Origin: an uncultured bacterium
GTDB lineage: Bacteria; Chloroflexota; UBA5177; JANWHV01
DNA: 64,000 nt
Assembly (NCBI GenBank): GCA_963827235.1
Contig: CAWHAE010000016.1
Coordinates: 864,001 to 928,000 of the forward strand
Direction of reading: 5' to 3'
Below the pieces are notes generated by a model. That model was not told the origin of the DNA, made no database searches, and saw nothing but the letters and a program-made list of their open reading frames with translations. The translations under genes and the position numbers were made by a program. How positions within the stretch are numbered: position 1 is the stretch's first letter; the number at the start of each line of letters is the position of its first letter. Shown here one piece after another: positions 38,888-58,008 of this stretch.

Positions 38888-38983
38888 ACGGTTGAGCCAC
38901 TGCTTGCATGCGGAGGTGCCGCTGCTCAGTGCAGAGTCAGCCTGGCTCCCAGTCGTGCGCGGTGCCTCAGCCACTACCGGCAT

Positions 38984-40888
38984 TCAGTCGGGTGGTCGTC
39001 GCGGGAGCGTTATGCCTGGGTAGCTGGCGCACCAGTCGACGTTTGCTCCAGCGGTGGGCCGAGTGCCATAGACACGGACGGCGGTTGCCCGGCCTTTGAC
39101 GTGGACTTCTCCGAGCGCTGTGGGCGCGAGCTCTGCTGTCAGCTCGGGCGCTAACGACTCGACGACGGCCGCGCTGGCTACGATGGAGAAGCCGGCCTCC
39201 TTGGTGTAGCTCTCCAGGCGCGAGGCAGTGTTGACCGTATCGCCGATCGCGGAGTATTCGCGCTTTGACGGCGCACCCATGACCCCAACTGCCGCCGGAC
39301 CGTGATGCAGTCCGATTCCGATGGCAATCCGCAGGCCGAATGTGCTCGCGAATTCCTCGTTGAGGGCGAGCAGCCGCCGCTGCATGCCAAGAGCTGCGCG
39401 AACGGCCTTGGTTTGAGGCTCGGCAAGATCGGATGGAGCACCGAACAGCGCCATAACGGCGTCTCCCACGTACTTGTCCACCGTGCCATCCTGGCGCTGG
39501 ATTTCCTCCACCATGGCGCTGAAGTAACGGCTCAAAAGCCGCACGATCGCCTGCGGCGGCAGCCCTTCAGAGAGCGTTGTGAAGCCACGGATGTCGGAGA
39601 ATAGCACCGTGATCTCGCGCACCTCGCCTTCCAGACCAAAGGCGTCCGGATCGTCGAGGATGCGCGACACGACTCCAGGCGCTACATACCGGCCGAACAG
39701 CGAGCGAAGCTCCCGATGTGCGCGCTGCTCGGTAGAGAACCGCGCCCCAAGCACCGAGAGCGGCGAAAGCACGAGGGCAACTGTAGGCGCGCTCACGTCG
39801 ATCCATGTATTGAAGAGCAGGAAGGCTGCGATGCTTGCAGCAGCCGCGAGCACGGTGAGGCCGGCGATGACCAGCAAGGTTGTCAGGAGCCGGGCGCGGA
39901 TCGCCCAACCGGCGACCAACGCCGCGAGTGGGAAGGTAAGCAAGATCTGCGTCGGGGTCCCAGGCCTCTGCAACGGATCGTGTTCCAGCATTGTGTTGAG
40001 AGCGTTGGCATTGAGCTCTATGCCGTACATGACGTCGGCGCCGCCATTGGCCTGTGAGACACCGCTATCAACAGGCGTGGAGAAATAGTCCTTGTCAACG
40101 CTGAGCTCATCGCCGACGGCCACGATCGCACCCTTGATTGCCGCGAGATTCTGTGTGCCATCCAGCACCGAGGCAAGCGAATAGGTCGGATACGTGGCGC
40201 CTGCAGGTCCTGCGAAATCGATCAGAAACGTGCCGCTGCTCGTATTCGGGTGCTCGCCCAGCGCTAGGGCAGCAGCGAGGGCAAATGATGGTGGTGCATG
40301 GCCCGCGGCATTCTGTGCGGCATCGATCCAATAGTTGTATTCGCGATAGCGGGCGAGCGGGTCGCGGCCGTCCGGCGGCGGGAGATTGACCACGCCAATT
40401 CCACGAGCGGCCGCTGCTATGCTGCTTTCAAGGGGCACCAAGCTCAACGAATTCGTGTACAGGGTCGAGCCCACGGCGATTTCCTGAGCCAGGACCACGT
40501 TGCCTGCACGACGTATAGCGCTGCTCAACTGCGCCGTGCCGCTGCGGCTGTCTTCGTACAGGCGGTCAAGCATGATCAAGCGTGCACCGGCCGAGTGAAG
40601 GCGGTCCACGAGCTGCGCGGTTGCAGCGCGCGACCAGCCGTCAAGTACCTGGTCGCTGTGTTGATCATACGCCACGATCACAATCGGGACCCGAGGCGGG
40701 TCCAGCCCTGCCTGGTGCCTCAGGGCAAATAGCTGGCTTTGCCAGGCGAGGTCCAGAGGCTCGAAGGCGCCGCGCAGAGCCAGGGATCCGCACACGATGA
40801 GCACCGCGAGGGCGGCAGCCACGCAGGCGATGCGAGTGTTGCGGCGCGCGCGCCGCGCCGGCCCACTATGTATTCGCTTCTCGGGCAC
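38984..40888 (-). CDS. CHASE2-domain class III adenylate/guanylate cyclase
   Basis: TM, then IVIVAYD..S...W.R, D.F.TP, MYGIELNAN, and 3 TM. Cyclase motifs FSDIRGFT, DKYVGDAVM, YSAIGDTVNTASRLE and VKGR. The Lys plus Ser specificity pair suggests class IIIb adenylyl cyclase. Confidence 0.92.
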   Translation of the reverse strand: MPEKRIHSGPARRARRNTRIACVAAALAVLIVCGSLALRGAFEPLDLAWQSQLFALRHQAGLDPPRVPIVIVAYDQHSDQVLDGWSRAATAQLVDRLHSAGARLIMLDRLYEDSRSGTAQLSSAIRRAGNVVLAQEIAVGSTLYTNSLSLVPLESSIAAAARGIGVVNLPPPDGRDPLARYREYNYWIDAAQNAAGHAPPSFALAAALALGEHPNTSSGTFLIDFAGPAGATYPTYSLASVLDGTQNLAAIKGAIVAVGDELSVDKDYFSTPVDSGVSQANGGADVMYGIELNANALNTMLEHDPLQRPGTPTQILLTFPLAALVAGWAIRARLLTTLLVIAGLTVLAAAASIAAFLLFNTWIDVSAPTVALVLSPLSVLGARFSTEQRAHRELRSLFGRYVAPGVVSRILDDPDAFGLEGEVREITVLFSDIRGFTTLSEGLPPQAIVRLLSRYFSAMVEEIQRQDGTVDKYVGDAVMALFGAPSDLAEPQTKAVRAALGMQRRLLALNEEFASTFGLRIAIGIGLHHGPAAVGVMGAPSKREYSAIGDTVNTASRLESYTKEAGFSIVASAAVVESLAPELTAELAPTALGEVHVKGRATAVRVYGTRPTAGANVDWCASYPGITLPRRPPD

Positions 40889-41037: not shown

Positions 41038-42521
41038 TTAGGAAGCCGCTGCCACGGTAATCTGTGTTGAAAGCTGGAGACCACTTGTCTGTCCGGTAGC
41101 AGCTACCGTGTGTGTGCCCGCCGGCTCGGTCGGCGGAATAGTGACTCGTGCGCTAAACGTGCCATCGGCAAGAACGGAAGGCGAGGCTACTTGGGTGCCG
41201 TCAAGTGTGATTAGCACGACCTCGGAAGCCTGGAAACCGGTGCCGCTGATGGCCACCACTTGACCAGGCGTGATGACAGACTGGTTGCCCGGTACCAGGG
41301 ACGAAAACGCGATATGTAACGTGGGCAGTGGGAGCCGGTGTCGCGGCCGCGGTCGGCGTGCCTGGCGGCCCGACCGGCACGGTCGCCGTAGTCGTAGGCG
41401 TGACCGTCGGAGTAACTATGGCCGTCGCCGTGAGGGTGGCTGTCATGGTCGGCGTGAGGGTGGCTGTCATGGTCGGCGTGATGGTGGCCGTCGCCGAAGG
41501 AGTGGCCGGCTGCGTGTAGGTGCAGTCACCGTCGGCGTCGCGGTCTTCGTCGGCGTATTCGTAGCCACCTCGCCGGCGGAATCAGGCTCGCCGGCAGCAC
41601 GGCCGCGGTGGTGTTCGGCAGCATCTTCACCCACGCCACCACCCTGCGCACATCCACGTTCGTAGGCGCGGTCGGCGCCCGGTTAGCCACTACCGTCGTC
41701 TGCTGACCGGCGCTCACCAGCGTCGAGCGCTTCTGATTGGTCACCTGCACCCGCCCCTCCACCACGGTGACTACAAACGAGCGGCTTTTCGCGTTGTAGC
41801 GTACGTCGAATCGGGTGCCCTTGGTGGCCGCCAACGCGGTGCCTGCCTGCACCTGGTGGCTCGTTGCCCCGTGCACCACTGCCAGGAACAACTCCCCACC
41901 GTTAATCGTCGTGTGCAGCGGGTCCTTGATCAGCACGTCGGTATTGCTGTTCAGGTCAAGCAGCGTGCCATCCCGCGTCTCGAGCGAGGCAAGTTGCGCT
42001 CGCCCTGTCAACGCGTGATAGTTCGCCAGCAAGTCACTGCCCACCGTGCCCGGTTGGAGCTTCGCATGCGGGGGTAGGATACCCATGCCACGCACGATCG
42101 CCGCCACCGAGACCGGCGGACCCAGCACAATCGGCACCCGAAGCGTGGCCACGCTAAACCCCGAGGCGCTGACACGCACCGTGGCGGCGCCCAGCGCGCT
42201 GGCATGGACCATTATGGCCAGCGCGCCATGCGCCGCGGTTCCCTGCAGCAGTTTGCCGACCCCGCTAACGCTGACGTGCGCCGAGACCGGCTTGTTCCCC
42301 GGGCCCGTCACCACCACGTGCAGCAGGACGTCCCGACCGATTTTGATTTGATTCGGCGTGACCGTCACATGCAGAGCGACCGTCTGCGCGGGCTGGGACT
42401 CCGCCGCACGAGCGGGCGCCGCAGTCGGCCCCTGCAACGCAACCAGCAGCGACACGAGTGCGACCAGCACGACACGACCGAGACTACGCAAGAGCACTCC
42501 GGAGGGTGGGGCGGGTTGCAA
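41038..42521 (-). pseudogene. Secreted FecR-like protein with Pro/Thr linker and C-terminal Ig-like domain, frameshifted (or sequencing error)
   Basis: Signal peptide. DGTLLDLNSNT...AATKGTRF...VVEGRV FecR-like core. TP-rich linker and GQVVAISGTGF domain lie in other frames, with shifts near 41570, 41515 and 41305. Confidence 0.7.
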
Positions 42522-43036: not shown

Positions 43037-43828
43037 ATGAACATCGACGAACGATTGATCGGCCTGCGCGGCGTTGGCATCCTGGCCGCCACTTCAGACG
43101 ATGTGCTTGCAGAGGTGGCACAGGGCCTCACCGCAGTGACTGTCGAAGCCGGTCAGACCATCTTCGCAAAGGGTGAGGCCGGTGACTCACTCTACATCAT
43201 CGCCGACGGCAAAGTCGGCATCTTCGATGGCCCATTGCTTCTCGGCCACCACTATCCCGGCGATGTATTTGGAGAGATGGCAGTACTGGATTCACAGACG
43301 CGGAGTGCCACGGCAGTTGCAGCGACCGTGTGCAGGCTCTACCGGCTCAGTAGCACCGAGTTTCGCCATCTGCTCAGCGAGCGTGGTGAGGTGGCCGAAG
43401 GCGTCATCAAGGTGCTCTGCGAGCGCCTGCGGAACACCAATTCCAATCGGACCGAGGACTACGAGTACATTCGCATGGTCGAGATGATCACCTCCGCGGC
43501 TCACGATCTTGAGATCTGCACGTTCCGCGCGGAATCCCTTCAGGAGGTGACCCAGCGAACCGACTCGTTGGGACACCTTGCCCGCGTCTTTCTGCGCATG
43601 GCGCGCGAAGTGCAGGCTCGGGAGGAGGCCCTCAAGCAGATGGTTCGTGAGCTGCAAATCGAGATCGACCCTGTGCAGCAGGCTAAGCAGGTGGATGAGA
43701 TTGTCGACACCGACTTCTTCAAGAACCTGCAGGTCCGGGCCCAGTCTACGCGCGGCTCTCGGACCTTCGGCAGAGTCGAACCGGCAGTCGCGGATGTAGT
43801 GTCCGCTAACGACAGCAGTCCGCGATGA
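43037..43828 (+). CDS. Cyclic-nucleotide-binding protein with HAMP-like segment and conserved C-terminal tail
   Basis: GQTIFAKGEAGDSLYII and phosphate-binding cassette FGEMAVLDSQTRSAT. No HTH. C-terminal LARVF..MA.EVQARE...IEID...TDFF. Confidence 0.85.
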   Translation: MNIDERLIGLRGVGILAATSDDVLAEVAQGLTAVTVEAGQTIFAKGEAGDSLYIIADGKVGIFDGPLLLGHHYPGDVFGEMAVLDSQTRSATAVAATVCRLYRLSSTEFRHLLSERGEVAEGVIKVLCERLRNTNSNRTEDYEYIRMVEMITSAAHDLEICTFRAESLQEVTQRTDSLGHLARVFLRMAREVQAREEALKQMVRELQIEIDPVQQAKQVDEIVDTDFFKNLQVRAQSTRGSRTFGRVEPAVADVVSANDSSPR

Positions 43829-44413
43829 GAGGAGCAGTGGTCCGACAAAGCCGGAACCGTCGCGGCTCACCCTTCCAGGCCGCTACCCAATGAATCGACG
43901 CACCCCTGGCAGCATCGTGGACTACCACGTATATGTGCACTACGCGGACACGTGCCGTGCGAGTATCTGTTGTTGCGGTCGCACGGCGGGCTCGACAGGC
44001 CTCCAGTTTGCGCTGAATAGCGAAATACCGGCCGGTTTGTAGCGCCGGATCATGTTCTGGACATCGGACCGGTGCCTCTCAGCCGGGATCGTGAGGAGCG
44101 CGGTCCGCATCACTCAGCGGAGCCTGCCAAGCCGGAAAAGGATCGGGACCACGAGATTGGTACCGGCCGAGACCGACTTACTGCTTCCGTCCAAGCGCCA
44201 TCGGCCTTATGGAGGTCGACCCGACGCAGGTGCAGCAAAGCCACTCCGGCGTGTTCAGCTATGCCAGCAAGCTCACGTAAGACGGCCACCACGTCTCGTG
44301 CCGCACAGGCTGGCCGTCATTTTCTCGGGGCGCGGAAGTGGGGGTCGGCTTCCTGCCGTGCCGGCGACACCACAGGGCAAAGTCCGCTCGTGGTGGTGGA
44401 GGCCGATACGGTA

Positions 44414-44442
44414 TTGACGGGCAATAACGCGTACAGTAGAGT
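44414..44442 (+). promoter_or_regulatory. Sigma70-type promoter upstream of the AGE-GlgX operon
   Basis: TTGACG-17 bp-TAGAGT (same -10 hexamer as the promoter at 18276). Confidence 0.6.
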
Positions 44443-44687
44443 TAGATCTGTCTTTTCTTCCTATACCCAACGATGATCTATGCTCGGGATTCCCACCAAC
44501 CTGCTTGCAGAGATTAGCGCATGTGTGTCGAATCCACGTGGCGCGGCAGTGTATCCTTGCGCTTCGAGAGACTTCAATTGAGATCGGAGGCTACCGGGAC
44601 CAAGTAGTCCATCGACCCACGCCAGGTCAGCAGTAATCCCCGTTGGTACCGATGGTTCTAGAGTCAACTGCAGGGAGAACGGTCGTC

Positions 44688-46505
44688 GTGAGTAACCTCA
44701 GCTTTACCTTCTCTGACACCATTGCTGGTTATGTCACCTCTTTCGACGAAGGTACCCGCACCTTCGGCATGAGGACGTCTGACGCGCGCGAGTTCAGCGT
44801 CAAGATCAGTGATGGCGCCTACGCCGAGCTGTTGCGGAACGCGGATGAGCCCTACAAGGACGCGACGGGTCTGATCAATCGCATGCTGGTACCCGGGCGC
44901 TTCCTCTATGCCTACGGCACGTTTTACCCGGAGGCAACTCTCACCTATGAGGCCAAGCGCCTGATCTTCGTGGGCCGCGACGCCGACGAGTTTCTCTTCG
45001 AGAAACCGGACTGGTGGGTGAATCAGATCTCGTCTATTGGTGACTGCTACCTCCGCTGGCAGTTTGGCGACGAACCGGTCGACTATCGCAACTACCGGAC
45101 ACTGATCAGCCTCACCGGTGGCAAGAAGAGGGACGACTTCCGGCAAGAGACCGACACCATCTCGCGCATGATCTACGGATTCGCATCATGCTATTTGCTC
45201 ACCGGGGAGGACCGGTTCCTGGAGGGCGCCGAGAAGGGCACGGAGTACCTGCGCGAACACATGCGCTTCGTCGACCGCGATGAAAACATTGTGTATTGGT
45301 ACCACGGCATCGACGTGCACGGAGCGCGTGAGGACAAAGTCTTCGCGTCCGAGTTCGGCGATGACTACGACGCGATTCCTGCCTACGAGCAGATATATGC
45401 GCTGGCAGGTCCGATCCAGACGTATCGCGTCACCGGCGATACCAGGATTCTCTCCGATGCCAAGGCTACCATCGATCTGTTCGATCGTTTCTTCATCGAT
45501 AAGGAAGGCAGGGGATACTTCTCGCATATCGATCCGATAACGCTGGATCCTCGAAGCGAGACGCTCGGCCGAAATCGCGCCAAGAAGAACTGGAACTCTG
45601 TTGGCGATCACGCCCCGGCGTATCTGGTCAATCTGTGGCTCGCCACGGGTGACGACCGCTACGCCAAGATGTTGGCCTACTGCGCGGATTGCATCGAACA
45701 GTACTTTCCGGACGACGAGCACAGTCCTTTCGTCCAGGAACGCTTCTTTGAAGATTGGAGCCACGACAAGACGTGGGGCTTCCAGCAGGATCGCGCCGTG
45801 GTGGGTCACAACCTGAAGATTGCCTGGAATCTCACGCGCATCTTCAACATGACGGCTGAAGAGCGCTACGCCACCCTGGCCAAGAAGATCGGCCGCGTCA
45901 TGCCCGCCGTGGGCAGCGACACACAGCGCGGCGGCTGGTACGACATGGTCGAACGGACGCTCAAGCCCGGAGAAAAGTATCACCGCTTCTCCTGGCACGA
46001 TCGCAAGGCGTGGTGGCAGCAGGAGCAAGCCATCCTGTGCTACCAGATCCTGGCCGGTACCTTTGGCGGGAATGAGAATCTGAAGCAGGCGCGCGAGGCT
46101 GCCGCGTTCTACAATGCCTTCCATCTCGACCATGATGATGGCGGTGTCTACTTCAACGTGTTGGCCAACGGCATTCCGTATCTGGTTGGGACCGAGCGCT
46201 ACAAGGGTAGTCATTCGATGAGCTTCTACCACTCGTCGGAGCTCTGCTACTTGTCGGCGGTCTATATCAACCTTCTGCTGACCAAGACGCCGATGGATTT
46301 CTTCTTCAAGCCGTTGCCGTCGGCGTTCCCCGGCAACGTGCTGCGGGTCTCACCCGATATCCTGCCGCCCGGCAGCGTGAAGCTCACCGCGGTGTGGATC
46401 GACGACAAACCGTACAGCGCATTCGACTCGAGCGCTCTGACCGTACAGCTGCCGGATACAAAGGAACAGGTCCGTGTGCGCGTCACGATCACTCCGAGGC
46501 GATAG
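44688..46505 (+). CDS. AGE-family (N-acylglucosamine 2-epimerase-like) epimerase/isomerase with extra terminal domains
   Basis: AGGGAG RBS before GTG. SRMIYGF, GDHAP, GHNLKIAW, WWQQEQ and FYHS match the (alpha/alpha)6 AGE motif positions. Confidence 0.8.
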   Translation: MSNLSFTFSDTIAGYVTSFDEGTRTFGMRTSDAREFSVKISDGAYAELLRNADEPYKDATGLINRMLVPGRFLYAYGTFYPEATLTYEAKRLIFVGRDADEFLFEKPDWWVNQISSIGDCYLRWQFGDEPVDYRNYRTLISLTGGKKRDDFRQETDTISRMIYGFASCYLLTGEDRFLEGAEKGTEYLREHMRFVDRDENIVYWYHGIDVHGAREDKVFASEFGDDYDAIPAYEQIYALAGPIQTYRVTGDTRILSDAKATIDLFDRFFIDKEGRGYFSHIDPITLDPRSETLGRNRAKKNWNSVGDHAPAYLVNLWLATGDDRYAKMLAYCADCIEQYFPDDEHSPFVQERFFEDWSHDKTWGFQQDRAVVGHNLKIAWNLTRIFNMTAEERYATLAKKIGRVMPAVGSDTQRGGWYDMVERTLKPGEKYHRFSWHDRKAWWQQEQAILCYQILAGTFGGNENLKQAREAAAFYNAFHLDHDDGGVYFNVLANGIPYLVGTERYKGSHSMSFYHSSELCYLSAVYINLLLTKTPMDFFFKPLPSAFPGNVLRVSPDILPPGSVKLTAVWIDDKPYSAFDSSALTVQLPDTKEQVRVRVTITPRR

Positions 46506-46520
46506 TGCGCAGGTTGGAGA

Positions 46521-46865
46521 ATGACGATGGAAGTTTCTGTCAACACCGTGGATGGCGCCACGGTCGTAGCTCTCGGTGGTGACATCGACGGCAGCACGGC
46601 ACCGGTAGCCCAAGGCAAGATTCTCGAGCACGTGGTTCCGGGTCAAGCATTGATCCTCGACATGACCGATGTCTCGTACATGTCAAGTGCCGGCCTGCGC
46701 ATGCTCCTGTCTGCCCATCGCTCCGCGGTGGCACAGCAGGCGTCTGTACTCCTGGTCGGTCTGTCCGAGGATCTGCAGGATACCATGGCCGCCACCGGGT
46801 TTCTGGAGTTCTTCAGCACGCATGCAACTGTGCCTGCTGCAATGGCATCACTTGGGAAAGGGTAG
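46521..46865 (+). CDS. STAS anti-anti-sigma factor (RsbV/SpoIIAA-like)
   Basis: GDIDGSTAP, ILDMTDVSYMSSAGLR (phospho-Ser position) and TGF. Confidence 0.9.
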   Translation: MTMEVSVNTVDGATVVALGGDIDGSTAPVAQGKILEHVVPGQALILDMTDVSYMSSAGLRMLLSAHRSAVAQQASVLLVGLSEDLQDTMAATGFLEFFSTHATVPAAMASLGKG

Positions 46866-46870
46866 CGGGC

Positions 46871-48997
<2,127 letters not shown>

Positions 48998-49023
48998 CTG
49001 GGGAACGACTAGGGAGAACGTGC

Positions 49024-49341
49024 ATGGCTTTCAGCTCGACGCTCACGTACGAGGGTAATGTGGCAAAGATTGCCATCAATGGTGAACTCGACGCCAGCTC
49101 GGCACCGGCGTTTCGAGAGAGAATCGAGGAGGCAGCCAACCACAATGTGGGGAAGCTGGTCATCCTGATGTCCGGCCTGACCTATATGGCAAGCGCCGGT
49201 CTGCGCGTGCTCATCTTCGCGAAGCAGAAGATGGGCAACTCGGTGGAGATCGCGCTGATTGGCCTGACGGATCCCGTCAAAGAAACCCTTGAGCTGACCG
49301 GCTTCCAGCATAGCGTGACCATCGCCGATTCCTATGAGTGA
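49024..49341 (+). CDS. STAS anti-anti-sigma factor, second copy
   Basis: AGGGAG RBS. GELDASSAP, LTYMASAGLR and LTGF. Confidence 0.9.
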   Translation: MAFSSTLTYEGNVAKIAINGELDASSAPAFRERIEEAANHNVGKLVILMSGLTYMASAGLRVLIFAKQKMGNSVEIALIGLTDPVKETLELTGFQHSVTIADSYE

Positions 49342-49465
49342 GGGACAGGGCTAGACGTCGCAAGAGTCGCCACCTGGCCGGCAACTGTGCACTATCGCCT
49401 TGATCACACGTAACCTCCTATCTGTGTCTGGCCACGTGCGCCGGACATAAGGAAGAAACCAGTTC

Positions 49466-50740
49466 ATGAACGGAAACCAAGCCAGGATCCTCATCGTCAG
49501 CGGGACCGAGGCGACATCGGCCCTTCTGACTGAATATGTTGTCCAGCACGGGTTCGTACCTGCCGTCGCCCAGGATGGCACTCAGGCGCTCGCCGCGGCT
49601 CAGGAGAATCCGCCGGATCTGGTCCTTCTTGCCCTCGATCTTCCCGAGGATGGAAGCACCCTGCTTGCCGAGCGCCTCAAAGCCACGCCGGCGCTGTCGA
49701 CGGTGCCTATCGTCGCCATTGCCGCACAAGAACAGCTTGGCAAGATAGAGTACTGCCTGGCCCTGGGCGTCGAGGACTATGTGCTGCTGCCGCTGCATGC
49801 GCCGGTAGTGCGGGCCCGCCTGGACGTGCTGAATGCTCGCCGGCAACATGCCTCGCTTCCGGCAGACACCCAGCGCGAAGAGGCGTTGCTCAAGATCGAG
49901 CGGGATATTCAAATCGGCCGGAACATCCAGCTGAGCTTCCTTCCCCAGTCGCTGCCGGACGTCCCCGGTTGGGAATTGGCGGCGCGCTTCCAGCCTGCCC
50001 GCGAGGTAGCCGGTGACTTCTACGATGCCTTCCCCCTGAATCAGGGCCGGCGGCTCGGCATAGTGATCGCGGATGTCTGTGACAAGGGCGTCGGAGCTGC
50101 CCTGTTCATGGCGCTGTTCCGCAGCTTGATCCGGGCGTTCGCCCAACAGCACTATTCGATCCGCTGGATGGGCGAGGACGAAACGGACTTTCTATCCGAC
50201 CCGGTGAAGGATAGACGACGCGCCATTCCGTCGACCGGCACCACCGCTCTCAAGAATGCCATGTCGCTGACGAACAACTACATCATCACGAATCACGGCG
50301 ACACGAGCATGTTTGCCACCATGTTCTTTGGCGTGCTTGATCCGATGACCGGCGTGCTCAGCTACGTGAATGGCGGTCACAACCCGCCATGGCTGTTCAA
50401 CGACGCCGGTATCAAAACCCGCCTCGTCCCCTCGGGCCCCGCGGTGGGAATGGTACCCGACGCAGACTTCGCCATACGGCAAGTCACCTTCATGCCTGGC
50501 GACACCCTGCTGACCTTCACTGACGGGGTGCCTGAAGCACGAGATCCCGCTGGAGCATTCTTCACCGAGGCCAGGCTGCGCTCGTGTCTCGGCGATCCGG
50601 CACCGCAATCGGCACATGACCTGGTGTCGCGGGTACACGCCGCACTGACCGCGCACATCGGCAGCGCGGTGCAGTTCGACGACATCACGATGCTTGCGGT
50701 GCGCCGCGCTACAGAAGCAGATGTGCTTGCCGTTACCTGA
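49466..50740 (+). CDS. PP2C/SpoIIE phosphatase with N-terminal pseudo-receiver domain (RsbU/RsbP-like)
   Basis: IQLSFLP, VAGDFYD, IADVCDKG, NGGHNPP, FTDG and DDIT. The receiver-like N-terminus lacks the canonical Asp and Lys. Confidence 0.9.
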   Translation: MNGNQARILIVSGTEATSALLTEYVVQHGFVPAVAQDGTQALAAAQENPPDLVLLALDLPEDGSTLLAERLKATPALSTVPIVAIAAQEQLGKIEYCLALGVEDYVLLPLHAPVVRARLDVLNARRQHASLPADTQREEALLKIERDIQIGRNIQLSFLPQSLPDVPGWELAARFQPAREVAGDFYDAFPLNQGRRLGIVIADVCDKGVGAALFMALFRSLIRAFAQQHYSIRWMGEDETDFLSDPVKDRRRAIPSTGTTALKNAMSLTNNYIITNHGDTSMFATMFFGVLDPMTGVLSYVNGGHNPPWLFNDAGIKTRLVPSGPAVGMVPDADFAIRQVTFMPGDTLLTFTDGVPEARDPAGAFFTEARLRSCLGDPAPQSAHDLVSRVHAALTAHIGSAVQFDDITMLAVRRATEADVLAVT

Positions 50741-50797
50741 GGCAGCGGGCATCCCCGCAGCAGCTGCAAGAGACTTCTCGTCTCAAAGGAGAGCATC

Positions 50798-51226
50798 TTG
50801 GACCGTCTGACGGTACCGGGCAAGCTGGAGTCGCTGGAGGCTATCGGCCAGTTTGTGCTTCGCGCGGCGGGTGAAGCCGGCCTGGACAAGAAGGCAGCGT
50901 ACCGGCTTCGCCTCGCAGTGGATGAGATCGCCACAAACATCATCGTGCACGGATATGAAGAGGCAGGCCGGCAGGGTCCCGTCGCTCTTTGGTCCGAGCT
51001 CGACGAGGGTGAGCTTCGCGTGTGCCTAGAGGACTCGGCACTACCGTTCGATCCGCACGCCGCTCGCACGCCCGCCGGCCTGGATCGACCCCTGGAAGAG
51101 CGCGAGATAGGCGGCTTGGGCGTGTTCCTGGCGCTTCGTGGTGTCGACGATCTGCGCTACGAGCGGGCGGGAGACGCAAACCGGAATACCATCGTCGTGC
51201 ATCGTCCAAAGCCAGCAGCCCAGTAG
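50798..51226 (+). CDS. Anti-sigma factor / Ser kinase (RsbW-like HATPase)
   Basis: AAGGAG RBS before TTG. LAVDEIATNIIVHG (N box), D...FDP and GGLGVFL. Confidence 0.9.
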   Translation: MDRLTVPGKLESLEAIGQFVLRAAGEAGLDKKAAYRLRLAVDEIATNIIVHGYEEAGRQGPVALWSELDEGELRVCLEDSALPFDPHAARTPAGLDRPLEEREIGGLGVFLALRGVDDLRYERAGDANRNTIVVHRPKPAAQ

Positions 51227-51256
51227 GCGAAAGCCGTACTGAGAGAGGGGAACTCC

Positions 51257-52012
51257 ATGTCTCGCATCATCTCGGTTCACAGCTACCGCGGTGGTACCGG
51301 GAAATCGAATACGTCGGCGAATCTCGCGGCGCTGATGGCCGTTGGCGGTCAGCGCGTCGGCATCATCGACACGGACATCATGTCGCCCGGGATTCACGTG
51401 CTGTTCGGCATGTCGCAGGATCCACCGGGACCAGTGCTCAACGACTACCTCTGGGGCAAGTGCGAGATCAAGGACGCCGCGTATGACGTGACAGCCTCGG
51501 TAGCGCCGAACCTGGACGGCAAGGTGTTCCTGGTACCCGCCAGTGTGCAGGCCAACAATATCGCTCGTATCCTGCGTGAGGGTTATGACGTCGGCCTGCT
51601 GAATGATGGATTCAACGCACTTGTCCGCGATCTGAAGCTGGACACGTTGATCATCGATACTCATCCGGGGCTGAACGAAGAAACACTGCTGTCCATTGCC
51701 ATCTCCGATGTGCTGCTGATCGTGCTGCGACCTGACCTGCAAGACTACCAGGGCACCGGTGTGACAGTGCAGGTAGCGCGAAAGCTGAGCGTCCCGCTAT
51801 TGTTGCTCGTGGTGAACAAGTGCCCCCTCAGCCTGGACGTCGACGCGGTACGGACCCGCGTGCAGGAGGCCTACAACAGCGAGGTGGCGGCGGTGTTCCC
51901 GCACTCAGACGAGATCATGACCCTCGCGAGCGGCGGCGTGTTTACGGTGAAGTACCCGGATCTGCCGGTTACGAAGACGTTCAAGCAGCTCGTGGGCCGC
52001 ATCCTTCAGTGA
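51257..52012 (+). CDS. MinD/ParA-family ATPase, atypical
   Basis: HSYRGGTGKSN deviant Walker A, IIDTDI switch I and IIDTHPG switch II. Confidence 0.88.
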   Translation: MSRIISVHSYRGGTGKSNTSANLAALMAVGGQRVGIIDTDIMSPGIHVLFGMSQDPPGPVLNDYLWGKCEIKDAAYDVTASVAPNLDGKVFLVPASVQANNIARILREGYDVGLLNDGFNALVRDLKLDTLIIDTHPGLNEETLLSIAISDVLLIVLRPDLQDYQGTGVTVQVARKLSVPLLLLVVNKCPLSLDVDAVRTRVQEAYNSEVAAVFPHSDEIMTLASGGVFTVKYPDLPVTKTFKQLVGRILQ

Positions 52013-52078
52013 CCGCCGGTGACTGTCGCCTCCCAGCATGCACACGCGTCTCGCGGTCCGGGCTGAGGGATTCCCAGC

Positions 52079-52438
52079 ATGAGTAGGGCCGAGATCCGGG
52101 CCTGGCTTGATCGAAATCGAGATCATCCGCGAGCCGAGGGTATATCGGCGGTCGATTTACTGGATCTTCCGCCGGTACTCAACCAGGTCGTGCGTGTGCT
52201 GCTCACACACGAGGCCCTGACGCAAGTGCAGATAGCAGCGGCGCTGGTCGCCTTGCCTGACACACTCTGGCGCCAGGACAGGAACCTCGCGTTCGCGCTC
52301 GATGGCCTCGTGGAGCAGCAGTGGCTGCGCCGTGTTGCCGGCAACTCCCCAGTGCAAGATCCGGTCTATCGGGTCAATCTGCGGACGCAAACGCGCACCA
52401 CGGTTGTGAGCAGCGGATGGGAGTGCAGCGATTTCTAG
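52079..52438 (+). CDS. Small hypothetical protein, possible winged helix
   Basis: DLLDLP...VVRVLL, LT..QIAAAL, LDGLVEQQWL and YRVNL fit a wHTH-like pattern. Lies directly after the MinD-like gene. Confidence 0.55.
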   Translation: MSRAEIRAWLDRNRDHPRAEGISAVDLLDLPPVLNQVVRVLLTHEALTQVQIAAALVALPDTLWRQDRNLAFALDGLVEQQWLRRVAGNSPVQDPVYRVNLRTQTRTTVVSSGWECSDF

Positions 52439-52466
52439 ATCAGTGGGGCTGCAGAGGAGCGCAAAT

Positions 52467-53531
52467 ATGCAACGTGCCTTTTTGAGCGTCCTTAGCCGGG
52501 CTGCACGACTACCGGCGTCAGCCACGTGGCTGGCTCGGCCGGTGATAGCCAGGGTCAGCCTTTGGATCCAAATGCTGGCTATATTCCTGCTGCTCTTTGC
52601 CGTGGCCTTTGGAGGGATGGCCTACCTGTTCTACACCAACTCGACCGATCAGGCCATGACTGTGCTGCGCAACGACTTGAGCGGCAGCGCTACCGATCTC
52701 GCCAAGCACCTGAACGCTTCGGACTTGACGACGATACAGACTACCAGGCGGATGACCGGCGACTACACGGCCGTGCAGGCACAGCTCCTGTACTTGAAGG
52801 ATTCCGATCCCAAGATCTACGGCGCCTACGTCTTCACGCGCAATCCTGCCAATCCGCGCACGATGCTCTGGGTGGTCACTTCCAACCTGCATCCAACAAA
52901 GAGATGCCGTCCGGTTCCCGGTTGCAGCTACGATCCCAAAACGCACCTGGGGGAAATGTCCGCGGCGTTTGAGCATCCTACTACCAGTCCCGGTATCTAC
53001 AGCGACGTATATGGCTCGTGGCTATCGGGATATGCCCCGATCCGCGACGCCAAAGGCACCGCGGTGGCTATTGCCGAGGTTGACATGACCGCGCAGTCGG
53101 TCATCGACGTGCAGAATGCCATCAAAGCCGCCAGCTTGCGGGTATTCATCATTGTCTTGGTCTGCTTGCTGGCCATTATCCCGTTCATGGCTGCAATTAT
53201 CACGAACCCACTCAAGATGGTGACCGCGGCGGCTCGCGCGCTCGAGCTTGGCACGTCTCCCAACCGGGCTGAGCTCCAGCGGGCAACTCAAGGCCACGAC
53301 GAGGTGAGCCAGCTGGCACGGGTGTTCAGCCGCATGGCCGACGAGGTACAGGCCCGCGAACAGAGGCTGAAACGCCAGGTAGAGGAGCTGAAGATTGAAA
53401 TCGACCTGACCAAGCAGCAAAGCGAGGTGGCCGAGATCACCGAGACGGACTTCTTCCGACAGCTCCAGCAGAAGGCGCAACGCATGCGCGCGCGCACCAC
53501 GGGATCGGTACAGGTAGCACCGGCCACGTAA
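52467..53531 (+). CDS. Membrane sensor: TM, Cache-like domain, TM, HAMP and conserved tail, with no catalytic output domain
   Basis: GAGGAG RBS. YSDVYGSWLSGYAPIRD...VDM Cache motif. HAMP (NPL..V...DEVSQLARVF..M). Tail IEID...EI.ETDFF..LQ. Confidence 0.85.
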   Translation: MQRAFLSVLSRAARLPASATWLARPVIARVSLWIQMLAIFLLLFAVAFGGMAYLFYTNSTDQAMTVLRNDLSGSATDLAKHLNASDLTTIQTTRRMTGDYTAVQAQLLYLKDSDPKIYGAYVFTRNPANPRTMLWVVTSNLHPTKRCRPVPGCSYDPKTHLGEMSAAFEHPTTSPGIYSDVYGSWLSGYAPIRDAKGTAVAIAEVDMTAQSVIDVQNAIKAASLRVFIIVLVCLLAIIPFMAAIITNPLKMVTAAARALELGTSPNRAELQRATQGHDEVSQLARVFSRMADEVQAREQRLKRQVEELKIEIDLTKQQSEVAEITETDFFRQLQQKAQRMRARTTGSVQVAPAT

Positions 53532-53594
53532 GCGTGGCGCGTCAGTTCGACAGCGTGCCGGGACATAAATCGCTAGACAGGAAGCACGAGAACC

Positions 53595-54122
53595 ATGTAT
53601 GAAGCGACTCTGACCGCGGAGATCGGCGAGGGCCGCGCGGTTCGCCGCCGTCTCGCTCTGCGAGAGGCAACACCTGATGACCGAGAGCGGCTGATGGACT
53701 TCATCGGCCGCTCAGGCCTGGAGGCAGCAGGAGCCCTCGAGCCGGGTACCCGATTCTGGGTAGGGGAGAACGCCGGCGGCCGGATCGTCGCGAGCACCGG
53801 CATGGAGTACGGAGCAGCAGCAGTGCTCTTGCGCAGCACCGCCGTGGACTCCGCATACAGGCATCGCGGCCTGGCCCTGGCGCTCTACGAATTTCGCTTT
53901 GCCGTGGCTCTGGCAGAGGGCTACGACGTCGCCTATGCGTTCTGCGATACGCCGGCCTTCATGCTGCGCACGGGCTGGCGTGCCGTGCCGGTCACGGAAC
54001 TGGTAGAGGCGCTGCCGGCCAGCTATCAGGTCGCGCATTTCGCGCGCCTCGGCTGGCTGCCTACGGAGCACGCCTTCCGCAAAGACCTGAGAACAAGCCT
54101 GATAACGAGGGGAGACGATTAA
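53595..54122 (+). CDS. GNAT-family N-acetyltransferase
   Basis: LLRSTAVDSAYRHRGLA acetyl-CoA binding motif. Confidence 0.8.
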   Translation: MYEATLTAEIGEGRAVRRRLALREATPDDRERLMDFIGRSGLEAAGALEPGTRFWVGENAGGRIVASTGMEYGAAAVLLRSTAVDSAYRHRGLALALYEFRFAVALAEGYDVAYAFCDTPAFMLRTGWRAVPVTELVEALPASYQVAHFARLGWLPTEHAFRKDLRTSLITRGDD

Positions 54123-54233
54123 CCGCGCTGGACAGAACCACCGCTCCTGGTAGCAGGCCGGACGCTGCCGGCCCATGTGATGCGTGGCATCACCTATGCA
54201 AGTGAAGATGCTGGTCAATGAAAGGGCAGATGG

Positions 54234-55055
54234 ATGAAACGAATCCTGATCACGCTATCGGAGTTCGGGTACTGGGGTGAGGAGCTGGTGGGTCCCCTGG
54301 AGGTGCTGGACAAGGCTGGGTATGAGACGGTCTTCATGACGCCGAGAGGCCGGCGAGCTCACGCGCTCCCACCCAGCATGACGCCCGGCTACCTTGATCC
54401 GCCGCTGGATAAAGTTGTAACGGACGAGCACTTCGCTGGGGCAACACGGGACATCGACGCATCGTCTCGGCTGGACAACCCTGTCAACCTCTCGTCGTGG
54501 TTTCCTGAGCGCCCGTACTTCAACGCGCCGGGCTTCGGGCATGGTCTGGAGGCGTACTACGCCGAACGCGACAGGCGCTGGCAGGAGCTCGAACAATATG
54601 ACGCGCTATTGTTGGTCGGCGGTAGCGGGCCGATTGTCGACATGGTGAACAATCAGCGGCTTCACGACGTGATCCTGGGCTTTCTCGCCGCGGGCAAATT
54701 GATCGCTGCCGAGTGCTACGGCGTTGCCTGCCTTGCATTCGCCCGAGACTGGACGGATCGCCAGAGCATTATCTGGGGCAAGCACGTAACGGGCCATGCC
54801 CTGGAGTACGACTACAAGGACGGCACCGGATTCCTCAATGCGGATATCAACATGGGGCCACCCCCGTATCCGCTCGAGCTCATTCTGCGTGATGCCACCG
54901 GGCCCGACGGCCGGTACCACGGCGGAGTCGGACACACCCTATCGACCATTCTCGATTATCCCTTCCTGACCGGCCGGTCTACTCAGGATTCGCATCTGGT
55001 GGGCGAACTGACAGTACAGGTACTGGAGAAGGGACTCCGCCGGTATGGCTGGTAA
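54234..55055 (+). CDS. DJ-1/PfpI (GATase1) family protein, long Hsp31-like form
   Basis: GYWGEEL, YDALLLVGGSG and nucleophile elbow AAECYG. Confidence 0.8.
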   Translation: MKRILITLSEFGYWGEELVGPLEVLDKAGYETVFMTPRGRRAHALPPSMTPGYLDPPLDKVVTDEHFAGATRDIDASSRLDNPVNLSSWFPERPYFNAPGFGHGLEAYYAERDRRWQELEQYDALLLVGGSGPIVDMVNNQRLHDVILGFLAAGKLIAAECYGVACLAFARDWTDRQSIIWGKHVTGHALEYDYKDGTGFLNADINMGPPPYPLELILRDATGPDGRYHGGVGHTLSTILDYPFLTGRSTQDSHLVGELTVQVLEKGLRRYGW

Positions 55056-55110
55056 GGCCGAGCTCCGGACGATGATCCTGCTGCGCTTGTAGAGAGGCAA
55101 AGAGAACCCG

Positions 55111-56814
55111 ATGCAGGAAAACGGTCATCACGCCATCCTGAGGCAATTCCTTGCCGATGGGTTGAACATCATGTTTGGCAACCCCGGTACCGTCGAGCAG
55201 GGATTCCTCGATGCGCTCAGCGATGTTCCCGAGTTACGCTACATCCTGACGTTGCAGGAGAGTGTGGCCGTGCTCATGGCCGACGGCTACGCACGCGCCA
55301 CGCACCGGCCGGCGCTGGTTCAGATTCACAGTTCGCCCGGTCTGGGCAACGCCATTGGCGCGCTGTATCAGGCGTATCGTGGGCACTCCCCATTGGTGGT
55401 CATCGGCGGTGACGCGGGCATCAAGTATCAGCCGATGGACTCGCAGATGGCGGCGGATCTCGTCGGCATGGCCAAGCCGGTTACCAAGTGGGCGACGACG
55501 GTGCAGGACCCGCAGTCGCTTCTCCGGGTAGTGCGGCGGGCAATCAAGATCGCCGCGACGCCACCTATGGGCCCGGTCTACGTGTGCCTGCCACAGGACG
55601 TGCTGGACGCACCTGCAACCGAGGACGTCTTCAAGACAAGCATCCCGGAGATGCGCGTCTCTCCAGCGCCCAGCCTTCTCCACGCGCCCGCGGCGGCATT
55701 GGCGGGGGCGTCGTGCCCAATGTTCTATGTCGGCGACGGGATTGCATTTGCCGACGCCCAGGACGAGCTCACCCGGCTCGCCGAGCTTGTCGGTGCTCAG
55801 GTCTATGAAGCCGACGCAGGCGAAGTCAACATGAGCCGCAGCCATCCTCTGTTTCAGGGATCGACAGGCCACATGTTCGGCTATCAGAGTCTGCCGACGA
55901 CACGGAAGGGTGACGTCAATCTCATCTGCGGCACCTACGTGCTCCCGGAGGTGTTTCCGGAGCTCGGAGACATTTTCGCCGCCGGGTCCGTGGCCATTCA
56001 CATCGACCTGAACGCCTACGAGATAGCAAAGAATCAGCGGGTGGATTTTGGCTTCGTCAGTGATCCAAAGCCTACCCTTGCCGCCCTCGCCGAGGCGGTC
56101 GACACCGCGATGACTCCGCAGCAGAGAGCGGACGCACGGGAGCGAGCAGAGCGGATCGGTGCAGAGAGCGCGGAGGGCGCGACGAAACGGCTCGAGGAGG
56201 ACAAGTCCCGGCGAGATACCGTGCCGCTCCACATGGCCCGCTTTGCCGAGGAGCTCAAGAAGGCGATTCCGGGGGACGTGGTCATCTTCGACGAGGCATT
56301 GACCAATAGCCCGCCGATTGGTCGCTACTTCCAGGCAAAGCGAACCGGCGACTACTTCCTCACTCGCGGAGGCTCCCTGGGCGTCGGGTTTCCAGGTGCC
56401 ATTGGAGTGAAGCTGGCTCATCCCGAGAAACTGGTGATTGGATTCAGCGGTGACGGCGGCGCGATGTATACGATCCAGGCGCTATGGTCGGCGGCCCGCC
56501 ATAATGTCGGCGTGAAACTCGTCGTGTGCAACAATCGCTCATACCGGCTGCTGCAGTCGAACGTGCTGGCCTACTGGACGGAGAGGAGCATTGAACCGCA
56601 TGCCTATCCGCTCAGTTTCGATCTCTCTCAGCCAGTGCTTCGATTCGACGAGCTTGCGCGATCCATGGGGGCCGGAGGCGAGCGGGTCGAGCGACTGGAG
56701 GACATTGCTCCGGCAATCGCCCGGATGGTGGCACACTCGGGCCCGTATCTCATCGACCTGATTCTCGAAGGGGACACGCATCCGGAGTTGATAGGCGTGA
56801 AGTGCGGCCAGTGA
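55111..56814 (+). CDS. ThDP-dependent enzyme, benzoylformate decarboxylase-like
   Basis: FGNPGTVE, LQESVAV.MADGYA, QIHSSPGLGN and the ThDP motif GDGG...NN. Confidence 0.9.
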   Translation: MQENGHHAILRQFLADGLNIMFGNPGTVEQGFLDALSDVPELRYILTLQESVAVLMADGYARATHRPALVQIHSSPGLGNAIGALYQAYRGHSPLVVIGGDAGIKYQPMDSQMAADLVGMAKPVTKWATTVQDPQSLLRVVRRAIKIAATPPMGPVYVCLPQDVLDAPATEDVFKTSIPEMRVSPAPSLLHAPAAALAGASCPMFYVGDGIAFADAQDELTRLAELVGAQVYEADAGEVNMSRSHPLFQGSTGHMFGYQSLPTTRKGDVNLICGTYVLPEVFPELGDIFAAGSVAIHIDLNAYEIAKNQRVDFGFVSDPKPTLAALAEAVDTAMTPQQRADARERAERIGAESAEGATKRLEEDKSRRDTVPLHMARFAEELKKAIPGDVVIFDEALTNSPPIGRYFQAKRTGDYFLTRGGSLGVGFPGAIGVKLAHPEKLVIGFSGDGGAMYTIQALWSAARHNVGVKLVVCNNRSYRLLQSNVLAYWTERSIEPHAYPLSFDLSQPVLRFDELARSMGAGGERVERLEDIAPAIARMVAHSGPYLIDLILEGDTHPELIGVKCGQ

Positions 56815-56838
56815 GCATTGCATGCAGAAAGGTCCAGC

Positions 56839-57408
56839 ATGAAACTCGCGGGTGCGAAGATCGGCGTGCTCATAGAGAGCGATTTCTATGAGAATGAGAT
56901 TCTCTATTACCAGCATCGGTTTCCAGAGGAGGGGATGGATCTCCATTTCCTCACCCGCCTGTGGGGGCAGCCATCCCTGACGTTCCATGGCCACGAGTAT
57001 AAGGTGCCATTTGAATGCCATGAGAGTTTCGAAGATATCGACGACGAGATGCTTCGCACCTACTCGGCAATCATCGTGCCCTCGGCGATTGTCGCCGACC
57101 GTCTTCGCTATACCGAGGACGTGACCAAGCTGCCACCGGCCACTGAGTTTCTCAAGCGGGCCTTCGCGCAAAAGAACATCATCAAAGGCATCATCTGCCA
57201 CGGGATGTGGCTGGTGTCGCCTGCGCCCGAGCTCGTGCGCGGCCGACCGGTCGTCGTCCACAACAACCTGATCGGCGATGCCCGGAATATGGGCGCTATC
57301 TACACCGACAAAGACGTCGTGGTAGACGGCGACCTGGTTACGGCCCGGACGGGCGGACACTGCCATCTCCTCGCCCGGACCATCATCGACATGCTCGCCG
57401 CCCGATAG
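56839..57408 (+). CDS. DJ-1/PfpI family protein
   Basis: FYENE, IICHG and DVVVDGDLVTAR. Confidence 0.85.
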   Translation: MKLAGAKIGVLIESDFYENEILYYQHRFPEEGMDLHFLTRLWGQPSLTFHGHEYKVPFECHESFEDIDDEMLRTYSAIIVPSAIVADRLRYTEDVTKLPPATEFLKRAFAQKNIIKGIICHGMWLVSPAPELVRGRPVVVHNNLIGDARNMGAIYTDKDVVVDGDLVTARTGGHCHLLARTIIDMLAAR

Positions 57409-57551
57409 CTGCCAACTGGATACGGATCATGGCGGAAACAGCATGGATGACAAACTCCGATCTGTTTGGGTCGACGTGCACCCACGTACGCGGCAACCGT
57501 GCGCAGGTCATGCAGCGGCGGCCTCTGCAGGCCGCGACGAGGAGGTAGGTT

Positions 57552-57968
57552 ATGGCGTTTCTGCGATTTTCCCACGTCGCTCTGTCGTGCCGGGATCCCC
57601 TGGCGGTCGAGCGATTCTACACGAAGCACTTCGGCTTCGCGCGAGCTCGAGTAATCGGCGACGACGTCGTGTTCATCAAGTCGCAAAATGCCTATCTCGA
57701 GCTTTTCAAGGCTGAAGGGGAACCGCCGGGCCCGGCGGCTGGGGGTGACGGGCCGCACTACCGAGGCTGGCGCCACATCGCATTTCAGGTCGACGACGTC
57801 GGTGCCAAGCTGGCGGCGATGGGCGACGACGCCCGCGTCACGCTGGGTCCGCTCGACTTCGGAGAAGTAATTCCGGGCTGGCGAACGGCTTGGGTTGCAG
57901 ACCCCGAGGGAAACATCGTGGAGATCAGCCAGGGGTACGTAGATCAGGAGAATCCGCCCACCCCTTAA
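57552..57968 (+). CDS. VOC/glyoxalase family protein
   Basis: AGGAGG RBS. Metal ligands in HVAL, LELF, HIAF and DPEGNIVEI. Confidence 0.9.
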   Translation: MAFLRFSHVALSCRDPLAVERFYTKHFGFARARVIGDDVVFIKSQNAYLELFKAEGEPPGPAAGGDGPHYRGWRHIAFQVDDVGAKLAAMGDDARVTLGPLDFGEVIPGWRTAWVADPEGNIVEISQGYVDQENPPTP

Positions 57969-58008
57969 GCAGTGGCTCCACAGGAGAGAAAAGAAGGAGA
58001 AGAGCAAG

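Follow-up and report, generated by a model that had tools for sequence, protein, structure and literature searches.

A C-terminal HAMP-coiled coil-tail module shared by unrelated sensors and its probable coupling to a MinD/ParA-family ATPase

Introduction

What do two unrelated sensors signal to when both end in the same helical sequence? This question is raised by a gene cluster in a 64,000-nucleotide stretch of contig CAWHAE010000016.1 from an uncultured bacterium of the Chloroflexota (the whole stretch is hereafter called the window), in which a cyclic nucleotide (cNMP)-binding protein and a membrane sensor carry the same C-terminal module. HAMP-linked sensors are normally classed by the enzyme domain that forms their output, and those with nothing but a helix at the end are recorded as truncated or as 'HAMP domain-containing' proteins. 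We propose, with a probability of about 0.7, that the module, about 100 residues long, serves as a dedicated transmitter and couples many kinds of input domains to one very conserved ATPase of the MinD/ParA family. Within the window this coupling would act in trans, with one ATPase gene situated between the cNMP and sCache sensor genes in a co-directional gene string. The features concerned are the following.

43037..43828, plus strand: cNMP sensor, an open reading frame (ORF) of 263 aa with a cNMP-binding domain (PF00027), a HAMP-like segment, a coiled coil and the tail
43478..43771, plus strand: candidate transmitter module of the cNMP sensor, residues 148-245 (BLASTP, tblastn, alignments)
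51257..52012, plus strand: MinD/ParA-family ATPase with Walker A RGGTGKS, proposed partner and output (Pfam ParA, AAA_31 and CbiA; adjacency, co-occurrence, fusions)
52467..53531, plus strand: membrane sensor with a transmembrane (TM) helix, an sCache/PDC-like extracytoplasmic domain, a TM helix, HAMP, a coiled coil and the tail
53211..53498, plus strand: candidate transmitter module of the membrane sensor, residues 257-352 of the 362-aa ORF (alignments, structural model of the module)

The module shared by the two sensors

BLASTP aligned the two proteins over their C-termini only, where 57 of 107 residues were identical (53%, E 2e-25), and their N-terminal parts were unrelated. By this measure the similarity is far beyond chance, which agrees with the preliminary description of the window, where the same module had been claimed for both proteins. 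Homologue alignments showed a conserved unit of about 100 residues, made up of a first helix, a connector and a HAMP AS2-type helix that runs unbroken to the end of the tail, and the tail motif at the module end was IEID...EITETD[YF]F...L...R. The AlphaFold2 (AF2) monomer model of the module, with a mean predicted local distance difference test score (pLDDT) of 81.8, gave helices at residues 2-15, 21-27 and 33-100. A ribbon-helix-helix reading, with IEID as the strand followed by two helices, was dropped because the last of these helices is continuous in the model; a monomer model leaves room for the dimer to adopt other states. The same genome has a third copy of the module (C16:293544-294599), which was 86% identical to that of the membrane sensor and was located inside a segmental duplicate of the whole cluster.

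No family matched the tail in Pfam (E <= 0.01) or NCBIfam (E <= 0.1), and a PDB sequence profile search with it returned nothing beyond a weak match to NarQ HAMP (E 0.18) and one to a designed scaffold (E 0.035). No family from these three sources covers the tail, which the preliminary description could not assign to a named family either. The same description had set its length at about 40 residues, and this part has to be corrected to the unit of about 100 residues that includes a HAMP-like helix pair.

The input domains of the two proteins were supported to different degrees. PF00027 matched residues 34-115 of the cNMP protein (E 2.5e-21, 75.9 bits against a cut-off of 27.5). The ORF of the membrane sensor is open from GTG 52443 (362 aa), and its 354-aa database form (P0001) begins at ATG 52467. 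The AF2 model of the whole membrane sensor (pLDDT 79.4) consisted of a long TM helix, an alpha/beta domain with a five-stranded sheet region at 117-208, a second TM helix and then helices. Foldseek matched its extracytoplasmic part to the formate chemoreceptor 8py0 (E 8.4e-7, TM-score on target 0.59-0.60), WalK 7dud (TM-score on target 0.67) and CitA 8biy (0.66), and the Pfam scan (E <= 0.01) gave no Cache match. Since the matches to sCache/PDC sensors are structural, the 'Cache' label is valid at the fold level only. HAMP (PF00672), which consists of two amphipathic helices and a connector, scored 22.8 bits in the membrane sensor against a cut-off of 25 and had no match in the cNMP protein at E <= 0.01; its threshold was passed by many module homologues, for example P0125 (42.8 bits) and P0241 (62.1 bits). 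The earlier label 'Cache-HAMP' for the membrane protein is thus right for Cache by fold, not by Pfam, and is sub-threshold for HAMP.

Over an alignment of 72 module sequences, F41, M44, R51, L62, D67, V75 and F84 were invariant, and E52 (99%), L55, I64, I66, Q74, E77, I78, E80 and L87 were conserved in at least 92%. R95, near the tail end, was R in 88% of the sequences and otherwise K. Across this alignment the conservation of polar surface residues exceeds the requirement of a coiled coil, and the invariant polar residues, together with hydrophobic residues outside a simple heptad (L62, I64 and I66), point to a specific surface rather than a generic coiled coil.

Signalling helix (S-helix) transmitters are likewise parallel coiled coils that follow HAMP, REC, GAF or PAS domains and precede a dimeric output, with a polar constellation in the central heptad (PMC1592074). 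They are defined by ERT at positions c, d and e of that heptad in a coiled coil of about 40 residues from sensor to output (Anantharaman et al. 2006; PMC1592074). The ERT signature was absent from the 72 aligned modules, in which A50 (71%), the invariant R51 and E52, that is A-R-E, stand in its place. The helix of the module is also longer and has a family-specific tail, and its proposed output is a MinD-like ATPase, usually a separate polypeptide. The S-helix placement between sensor and output was found in the fused forms described below (106/120), and the two window proteins end after the helix.

Spread of the module and its input domains

A word-indexed search with the last 73 residues gave 565 clusters at E <= 1e-3 among 619 candidates, and an exhaustive phmmer search of 1.84 billion representatives matched 1502 of them at E <= 1e-3, with 221 also passing E <= 1e-10. 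Of 268 retrieved proteins, 218 contained the tail motif, which in 207 cases ended at most 40 residues from the C-terminus. Loci with the module came from Chloroflexota, Cyanobacteria, Rubrobacteraceae, Binatia, Dormibacterota, Gemmatales and Gammaproteobacteria.

Pfam domains found in 148 module representatives were REC in 18 (12 of them also with an N-terminal HisKA-like region), cNMP_binding in 3, dCache_1 in 24 and GAF in 4, with 4HB_MCP, CHASE3, sCache_3_2, DUF4118 and an ECF-S-like membrane domain as further inputs. PAS was also among the inputs preceding the module, and many of the 148 were fragments with no Pfam match or with HAMP alone. None of the 148 had a Pfam domain C-terminal to the module. 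Both the word-indexed and the exhaustive survey showed C-terminal tails only, and fused forms surfaced in a search for long ATPase relatives; 'always C-terminal' is therefore true for the best-scoring tail matches and not for the whole family. Whatever follows the module in homologues is the same MinD-like ATPase, which supports a non-catalytic tail rather than the stub of a truncated kinase or phosphatase. The suggestion of a modular output unit behind varied inputs was likewise borne out, with REC, HisKA plus REC, cNMP, GAF, PAS, dCache, sCache, 4HB and CHASE3 found in front of it.

A MinD-like ATPase as the commonest neighbour

Related loci were collected by a scan of species-representative genomes, in which at least 404 of 600 candidate stretches were confirmed and 78 loci were returned; their ORF sets were crude, and the tail gene was recovered in 70. 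The neighbour family met most often was that of the orthologues of the window ATPase, with 42 ORFs spread over 37 of the 78 loci (44 ORFs in 38 loci by phmmer). Where the tail gene was recovered, 34 of 70 loci had an ATPase orthologue (phmmer E 1e-70 to 1e-114), which was the next gene in 20, two or three genes off in 8 and further away in 6. In the 20 loci with the ATPase as next gene, the two genes shared a strand without exception, and the gaps between them were -85 to +184 bp. Of the 41 loci of 15 kb or more, 25 had the orthologue. For comparison, the window genome has 2 such ATPase genes in 8.0 Mb, so one would be expected by chance in about 0.5% of 20-kb stretches. In 6 of the 70 loci, and likewise in L079-L081, there were several tail genes to each ATPase gene. 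Three further loci from the phylum of the window showed the same gene set.

Other families recurred at lower frequency. Homologues of a small winged-helix (wHTH) protein were found as 22 ORFs in 20 of 78 loci by the family profile, mostly touching the ATPase gene, and this protein, named before as a partner candidate, is indeed a recurrent one. A PP2C orthologue (E <= 2e-59) was present in 9/78 loci, all 9 with the ATPase, and relatives of the RsbW-like kinase and STAS proteins in 8/78 each. Proteins combining cyclase, AAA_16 and TPR domains were neighbours in 10/78 loci, HEAT-cNMP proteins in 5, and an MFS/TLC-like membrane protein of about 450 aa in 7/78 as well as in the paralogous cluster of the window genome.

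The ATPase at 51257-52012 matched ParA (57.4 bits), AAA_31 (53.6) and CbiA (39.1), all above the Pfam cut-offs, and it has the characters of a deviant Walker A ATPase (SIMIBI, MinD/ParA; xKGGxGK[ST]), with R11 for the signature lysine. Over 54 sequences the family had a mean column identity of 78%, with 64-70% identity between distant lineages. Walker A GKS, D38/D40, D134, Walker B DTHPG and the replacing R11 were invariant in 54/54, so that from its sequences the family looks active and constrained. It failed the MinD equivalog cut-offs (TIGR01969, 93 bits against 201.75; TIGR01968, 42.3 against 212.9), and no minC or minE was seen beside it in the window or the related loci. Its nearest solved relatives by sequence were archaeal and bacterial MinD (1hyq, E 1.2e-17) and FleN (E 3.8e-9). 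The standalone form is very abundant: of 8000 candidates scored, 7999 reached E <= 1e-40. Its annotation goes no further than MinD/ParA family. A second, more divergent paralogue, 40-54% identical to that of the window, occurs in many genomes and is often in tandem with the conserved one (for example L003, L016, L043, L079-L081 and G222:C1:1464580-1466086); the window cluster has one ATPase only.

Co-occurrence and fusion of module and ATPase

Presence of the ATPase was scored at E <= 1e-50 in the phylum of the window and at E <= 1e-45 in the phylum of a Nostoc locus, and the module was counted when its match reached the tail end (profile position 95 or beyond in the latter phylum). This tail-end rule was set after the table was seen, because plain HAMP domains were also picked up by the module profile. 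Of the 301 genomes sampled from the phylum of the window, 35 had both, 1 had the full module only, 0 had the ATPase only and 262 had neither; a module match was present in 39 genomes, and in three (G050, G147 and G224) it stopped before the tail. In 201 genomes of the second phylum the corresponding numbers were 30, 2, 4 and 165, with totals of 34 genomes with the ATPase and 32 with the full module. These tables, which were built for the ATPase and not for the other neighbours, show a near-perfect co-occurrence of the tail with the MinD-like gene.

Fused forms were searched among proteins of 441-2000 aa containing the ATPase, which gave 198 clusters at E <= 1e-30, and the best 120 were profiled. 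They comprised 104 module-ATPase proteins, 2 of the same build with a duplicated part, 13 with the ATPase joined to other partners (including kinase-FHA, amino-acid-permease-like and PrsW-like proteins by precomputed Pfam labels) and 1 ATPase-wHTH protein. Thus, in 106 of the best 120 long proteins the complete tail stood directly upstream of the ATPase. Inputs of the fused forms were cNMP (about 505 aa), HisKA plus REC (about 710-750 aa), dCache (about 761 aa) and PAS (about 507 aa), and the same inputs occur in split forms. The linker between tail and ATPase was 0-66 residues long (median 42), of low complexity and rich in S, P and Q, so that a tether fits better than a rigid helical junction. 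Several fused forms were from isolate genomes, where their names say no more than 'response regulator', 'cyclic nucleotide-binding domain-containing protein' or 'P-loop NTPase'. In fused cyanobacterial HisKA plus REC proteins (P0408-P0436) the tail was more divergent, for example with S-I-D for E-I-D and A-T-D-H-F for T-E-T-D-Y-F, which would fit relaxed selection on affinity after tethering.

Strength of the coupling

Because three mutually independent lines of genomic evidence, adjacency (34/70 loci), co-occurrence in two phyla and fusion (106/120), come together, functional coupling of module and ATPase appears very likely, and the MinD-like ATPase, already singled out in the preliminary description, is the leading partner candidate. 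Direct contact between the two would be the simplest reading of the tethered fusion.

Several observations weigh on the other side. No ATPase gene was found within 10 kb in 36 of 70 related loci, so many tail proteins must have either an ATPase encoded at a distance or some other target, and the window cNMP gene itself is 7.4 kb from the ATPase gene rather than adjoining it. The wHTH (20/78) and the PP2C orthologue (9/78) were much less constant than the ATPase. The weak matches among the 1502 may in part be generic HAMP or coiled-coil proteins. Exceptions to the co-occurrence were the module-only genomes G086, G305 and G493 and the ATPase-only genomes G469, G481 and G501, while G431 has a partial tail match beside its ATPase. 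Kin genomes are not independent, and the two-by-two tables therefore overstate the support; the same applies to co-occurrence inside the window genome, where the cluster is duplicated.

A possible mechanism

If the module does act on the ATPase, the sensor would be a parallel dimer whose two tails recruit, or in fused forms tether, two ATPase protomers. A signal-dependent rearrangement of HAMP and coiled coil would then gate formation of the ATP-bound sandwich dimer and hydrolysis. Such control of dimerisation is suggested by analogy, as HAMP and S-helix transmitters gate dimeric cyclases or kinases. In a complex prediction of two ATPase chains with ATP/Mg and one tail (residues 33-108), run without controls and with a single tail helix that is possibly unphysiological, the scores were 0.28, 0.34 and 0.24 against a mark of 0.32, an outcome that weighs on neither side of the question of binding. 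Several sensors could be integrated on one ATPase switch. The candidate readers of its nucleotide state in the window are as follows.

46521..49341, plus strand: STAS, GlgX-type debranching enzyme and STAS, the first three icfG-like genes (Pfam STAS matches, ORFs)
49466..50740, plus strand: REC-PP2C (SpoIIE-type) phosphatase (PF07228 E 1.6e-44, PF00072 E 1.3e-11)
50798..51226, plus strand: RsbW/SpoIIAB-like kinase/anti-sigma factor, HATPase_c_2 (PF13581 E 2.3e-21)
52079..52438, plus strand: small wHTH protein, third recurrent component (family profile)

The nucleotide state would be read by the wHTH protein and probably also by the icfG-type partner-switch of REC-PP2C, RsbW-like kinase and STAS, and permease-like proteins with a wHTH module would be further candidate readers. 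The wHTH protein of the window had no Pfam match itself; its homologue in L012 matched HTH_IclR, MarR_2 and HTH_24 at E about 2e-5, and the family has a basic C-terminal stretch. A wider reading, to which we give somewhat less than an even chance, is that these proteins represent a distinct and widespread mode of signalling. One-component sensors, response regulators and cNMP receptors would converge, by way of a single dedicated HAMP-coiled coil-tail transmitter, on a MinD-type ATPase serving as a nucleotide-dependent integrator switch, not a positioning motor, and this switch would drive the wHTH adaptor, the permease-like proteins and the icfG-type partner-switch that sets sigma-factor activity and carbon/glycogen metabolism.

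Alternative explanations

The main rival is positioning of the ParC/PpfA type, in which the ATPase and a wHTH adaptor would space or segregate sensor clusters and the tail would be the peptide by which the cargo contacts the ATPase. In the PpfA/TlpT system it is the receptor terminus that contacts the ATPase. In ParC/ParP and PpfA/TlpT a ParA/MinD-family ATPase is likewise encoded with, and acts on, coiled-coil signalling receptors, the function being spatial positioning, and the cargos of A/D ATPases include chemoreceptor arrays placed by ParC/PpfA (PMC11407121). The kinship of the ATPase to solved MinD proteins and FleN, a small DNA-binding-type wHTH beside it as in ParA-ParB pairs, and the conserved basic residue near the tail end (R95, 88%) are all consistent with positioning, and the adjacency and co-occurrence data agree with it equally well. 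Stimulating partners of the ParB, MinE and McdB type contact the ATP-bound dimer through a short segment that has a conserved basic residue. However, the cargo would be covalently fused to its own ATPase in 106/120 proteins, unlike the build of known positioning systems, and it would include small soluble proteins whose only input is REC or cNMP and which offer nothing evident to be positioned. Non-rigorous inspection of the ATPase identified no membrane-targeting helix or DNA-binding motif. The receptors considered here also differ from those of ParC/ParP and PpfA/TlpT in having no MCP signalling domain, with no CheA/CheW in the loci, and in having a C-terminal HAMP-coiled coil-tail element, REC/cNMP inputs and natural ATPase fusions. 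Positioning thus fits the precedents of the family and fits the fusions and the small soluble cargo poorly, and we regard it as unlikely.

It is also conceivable, with a still lower probability, that the direct partner of the tail is the wHTH, the PP2C, the RsbW-like kinase, STAS or the MFS/permease-like protein, and that the ATPase is only a co-regulated assembly or chaperone factor. The recurrence of these families (wHTH in 20/78 loci, PP2C in 9/78, RsbW-like and STAS in 8 each, the protein of about 450 aa in 7/78 and in the paralogous cluster) would allow this, as would the wHTH module embedded in permease-like proteins of about 965-1000 aa. Each of them, however, was far less constant than the ATPase (37-38/78 loci), and the fusions joined the tail to the ATPase (106/120), with 0 tail-wHTH or tail-PP2C fusions in the surveys made.

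That the tail merely prolongs HAMP as a dimerising coiled coil, or is the remnant of a signalling helix, and has no partner of its own, the proteins being decoys or truncated sensors, is very improbable: the single uninterrupted helix of the AF2 monomer and the lack of a detected family or fold beyond HAMP would suit it, but not polar residues invariant across phyla, an end point shared by hundreds to 1500 clusters, or co-occurrence and fusion with one ATPase family.

Comparison with described systems and significance

TadZ/CpaE proteins likewise combine a domain of signalling type with a MinD-like ATPase in a single chain, and the N-domain of CpaE is receiver-like. There the receiver-like domain abuts the ATPase and the role is pilus localisation. 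In the proteins considered here, HAMP, a coiled coil and the tail stand between input and ATPase; the inputs vary, and in most members two separate genes encode sensor and ATPase. CpaE is among the A/D ATPases in Table 1 of PMC11407121. FlhG/FleN is likewise of the MinD clade, and there the monomer/dimer state picks the partners (FlrA/FleQ, FliM) and controls transcription (PMC11407121). The system described here, in contrast, has no flagellar context, belongs to a distinct ATPase family (TIGR01969, 93 against 201.75 bits; Walker A R for K) and would have dedicated sensors with a common tail as its upstream regulators.

In the main text of open-access papers and preprints, neither the tail nor this ATPase family was found described, nor were sensors that have a MinD-like ATPase as their output. 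No such system was described in the available portions of PMC11407121, PMC7159879, PMC1592074 and PMC9953108; the MinD/ParA-like domains treated in PMC7159879 belong to conflict systems and are inactive. A PADLOC defence scan gave the ATPase only a partial PDC-M28B match (E 1.7e-7, residues 5-96), and the cNMP protein resembled Pycsar effectors through the cNMP domain alone; the wHTH and the membrane sensor had no match. An anti-phage defence reading was rejected, as no PADLOC model matched over most of any tested protein.

If the proposed coupling is true, hundreds to more than 1000 orphan sensors in Chloroflexota, Cyanobacteria, Actinomycetota and other phyla would gain an output, including cNMP receptors and regulators annotated only as 'response regulator'. 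ParA/MinD ATPases would gain a role as signal integrators under dedicated receptors, beyond cargo positioning, and on the wider reading given above the MinD-type ATPase would join kinases, cyclases, GGDEF and PP2C as a new class of output domain. The cyanobacterial icfG/SigC carbon-signalling hub would gain candidate upstream sensors. With natural split and fused versions and few invariant residues, the system is directly testable.

The gene cluster and its surroundings

The genes of 43037-53531 are all on the plus strand, in the order cNMP-module, N-acylglucosamine-2-epimerase-like, STAS, GlgX-like, STAS, REC-PP2C, RsbW-like, ATPase, wHTH and membrane sensor, with the RsbW-like gene 30 bp upstream of the ATPase gene. 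The GlgX identity of ORF 46871-48997 was read by eye from its translation and is putative. The order STAS, isoamylase/GlgX, STAS, PP2C, RsbW-like kinase in 46521-51226 is that of the icfG cluster of Synechocystis (slr1856-slr1861), where the reference order is slr1856, slr1857 (isoamylase), slr1859, slr1860 and slr1861 (PMC12329169); the orthology was judged from domain content and gene order only. Slr1861 is an anti-SigC factor and STAS kinase, and the cluster is linked to carbon signalling and SigC control (PMC12329169). The available portions of PMC12329169 mention no MinD-like ATPase, wHTH or tail-bearing sensor for the Synechocystis cluster. In the window, the icfG-type order is found in a non-cyanobacterial genome and in company with the ATPase system.

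A segmental duplication of about 14 kb relates window 44670-58464 to C16:284644-299066 of the same genome (G000, locus L082), with 74-81% nucleotide identity. The duplicated block contains the epimerase-like, STAS, GlgX-like, STAS, PP2C, RsbW-like, ATPase, wHTH and membrane-sensor genes, followed by a 175-aa protein, a DJ-1-like protein and a thiamine diphosphate (ThDP) enzyme. In the C16 copy the PP2C is without REC, an extra 450-aa MFS-like gene stands between the wHTH and the sensor, and the cNMP-module gene is missing.

The wHTH module is also embedded, at about residues 590-750, in proteins of about 965-1080 aa without a Pfam match at E <= 1e-4. They were found in L005, L007, L014, L031, L049 and L051, for example at L007:10315-13206 on the minus strand, where the gene abuts the ATPase gene. 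The ESM Atlas cluster of the L007 protein is labelled amino-acid transporter, with Trp_Tyr_perm in 56% of members and HTH_IclR in 13%, which we take as a lead only. The ATPase itself is fused to an Aa_trans/Trp_Tyr_perm protein in P0481.

A further signalling gene lies before the cluster.

38984..40888, minus strand: CHASE2 sensor with class III nucleotide cyclase (PF05226 E 5.9e-35, PF00211 E 4.5e-26)

This cyclase is a possible source of the cNMP read by the 43037-43828 protein. Directly downstream of it, a small ORF (38546-38983, minus strand) matches TIR_2 weakly (E 1.3e-5), its 26.1 bits falling short of the cut-off of 28. FecR-domain proteins are encoded at 41529-42521 on the minus strand, between the cyclase and cNMP-module genes, and at 59353-62550 on the plus strand, the latter of 1066 aa with right-handed beta-helix repeats. 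In 32751-36963 on the minus strand, SnoaL-like genes, one of them with two SnoaL domains, surround a GMC oxidoreductase gene, and window 32748-33140 and 36100-36951 have similar copies at C16:299098-302000, near the duplicated cluster.

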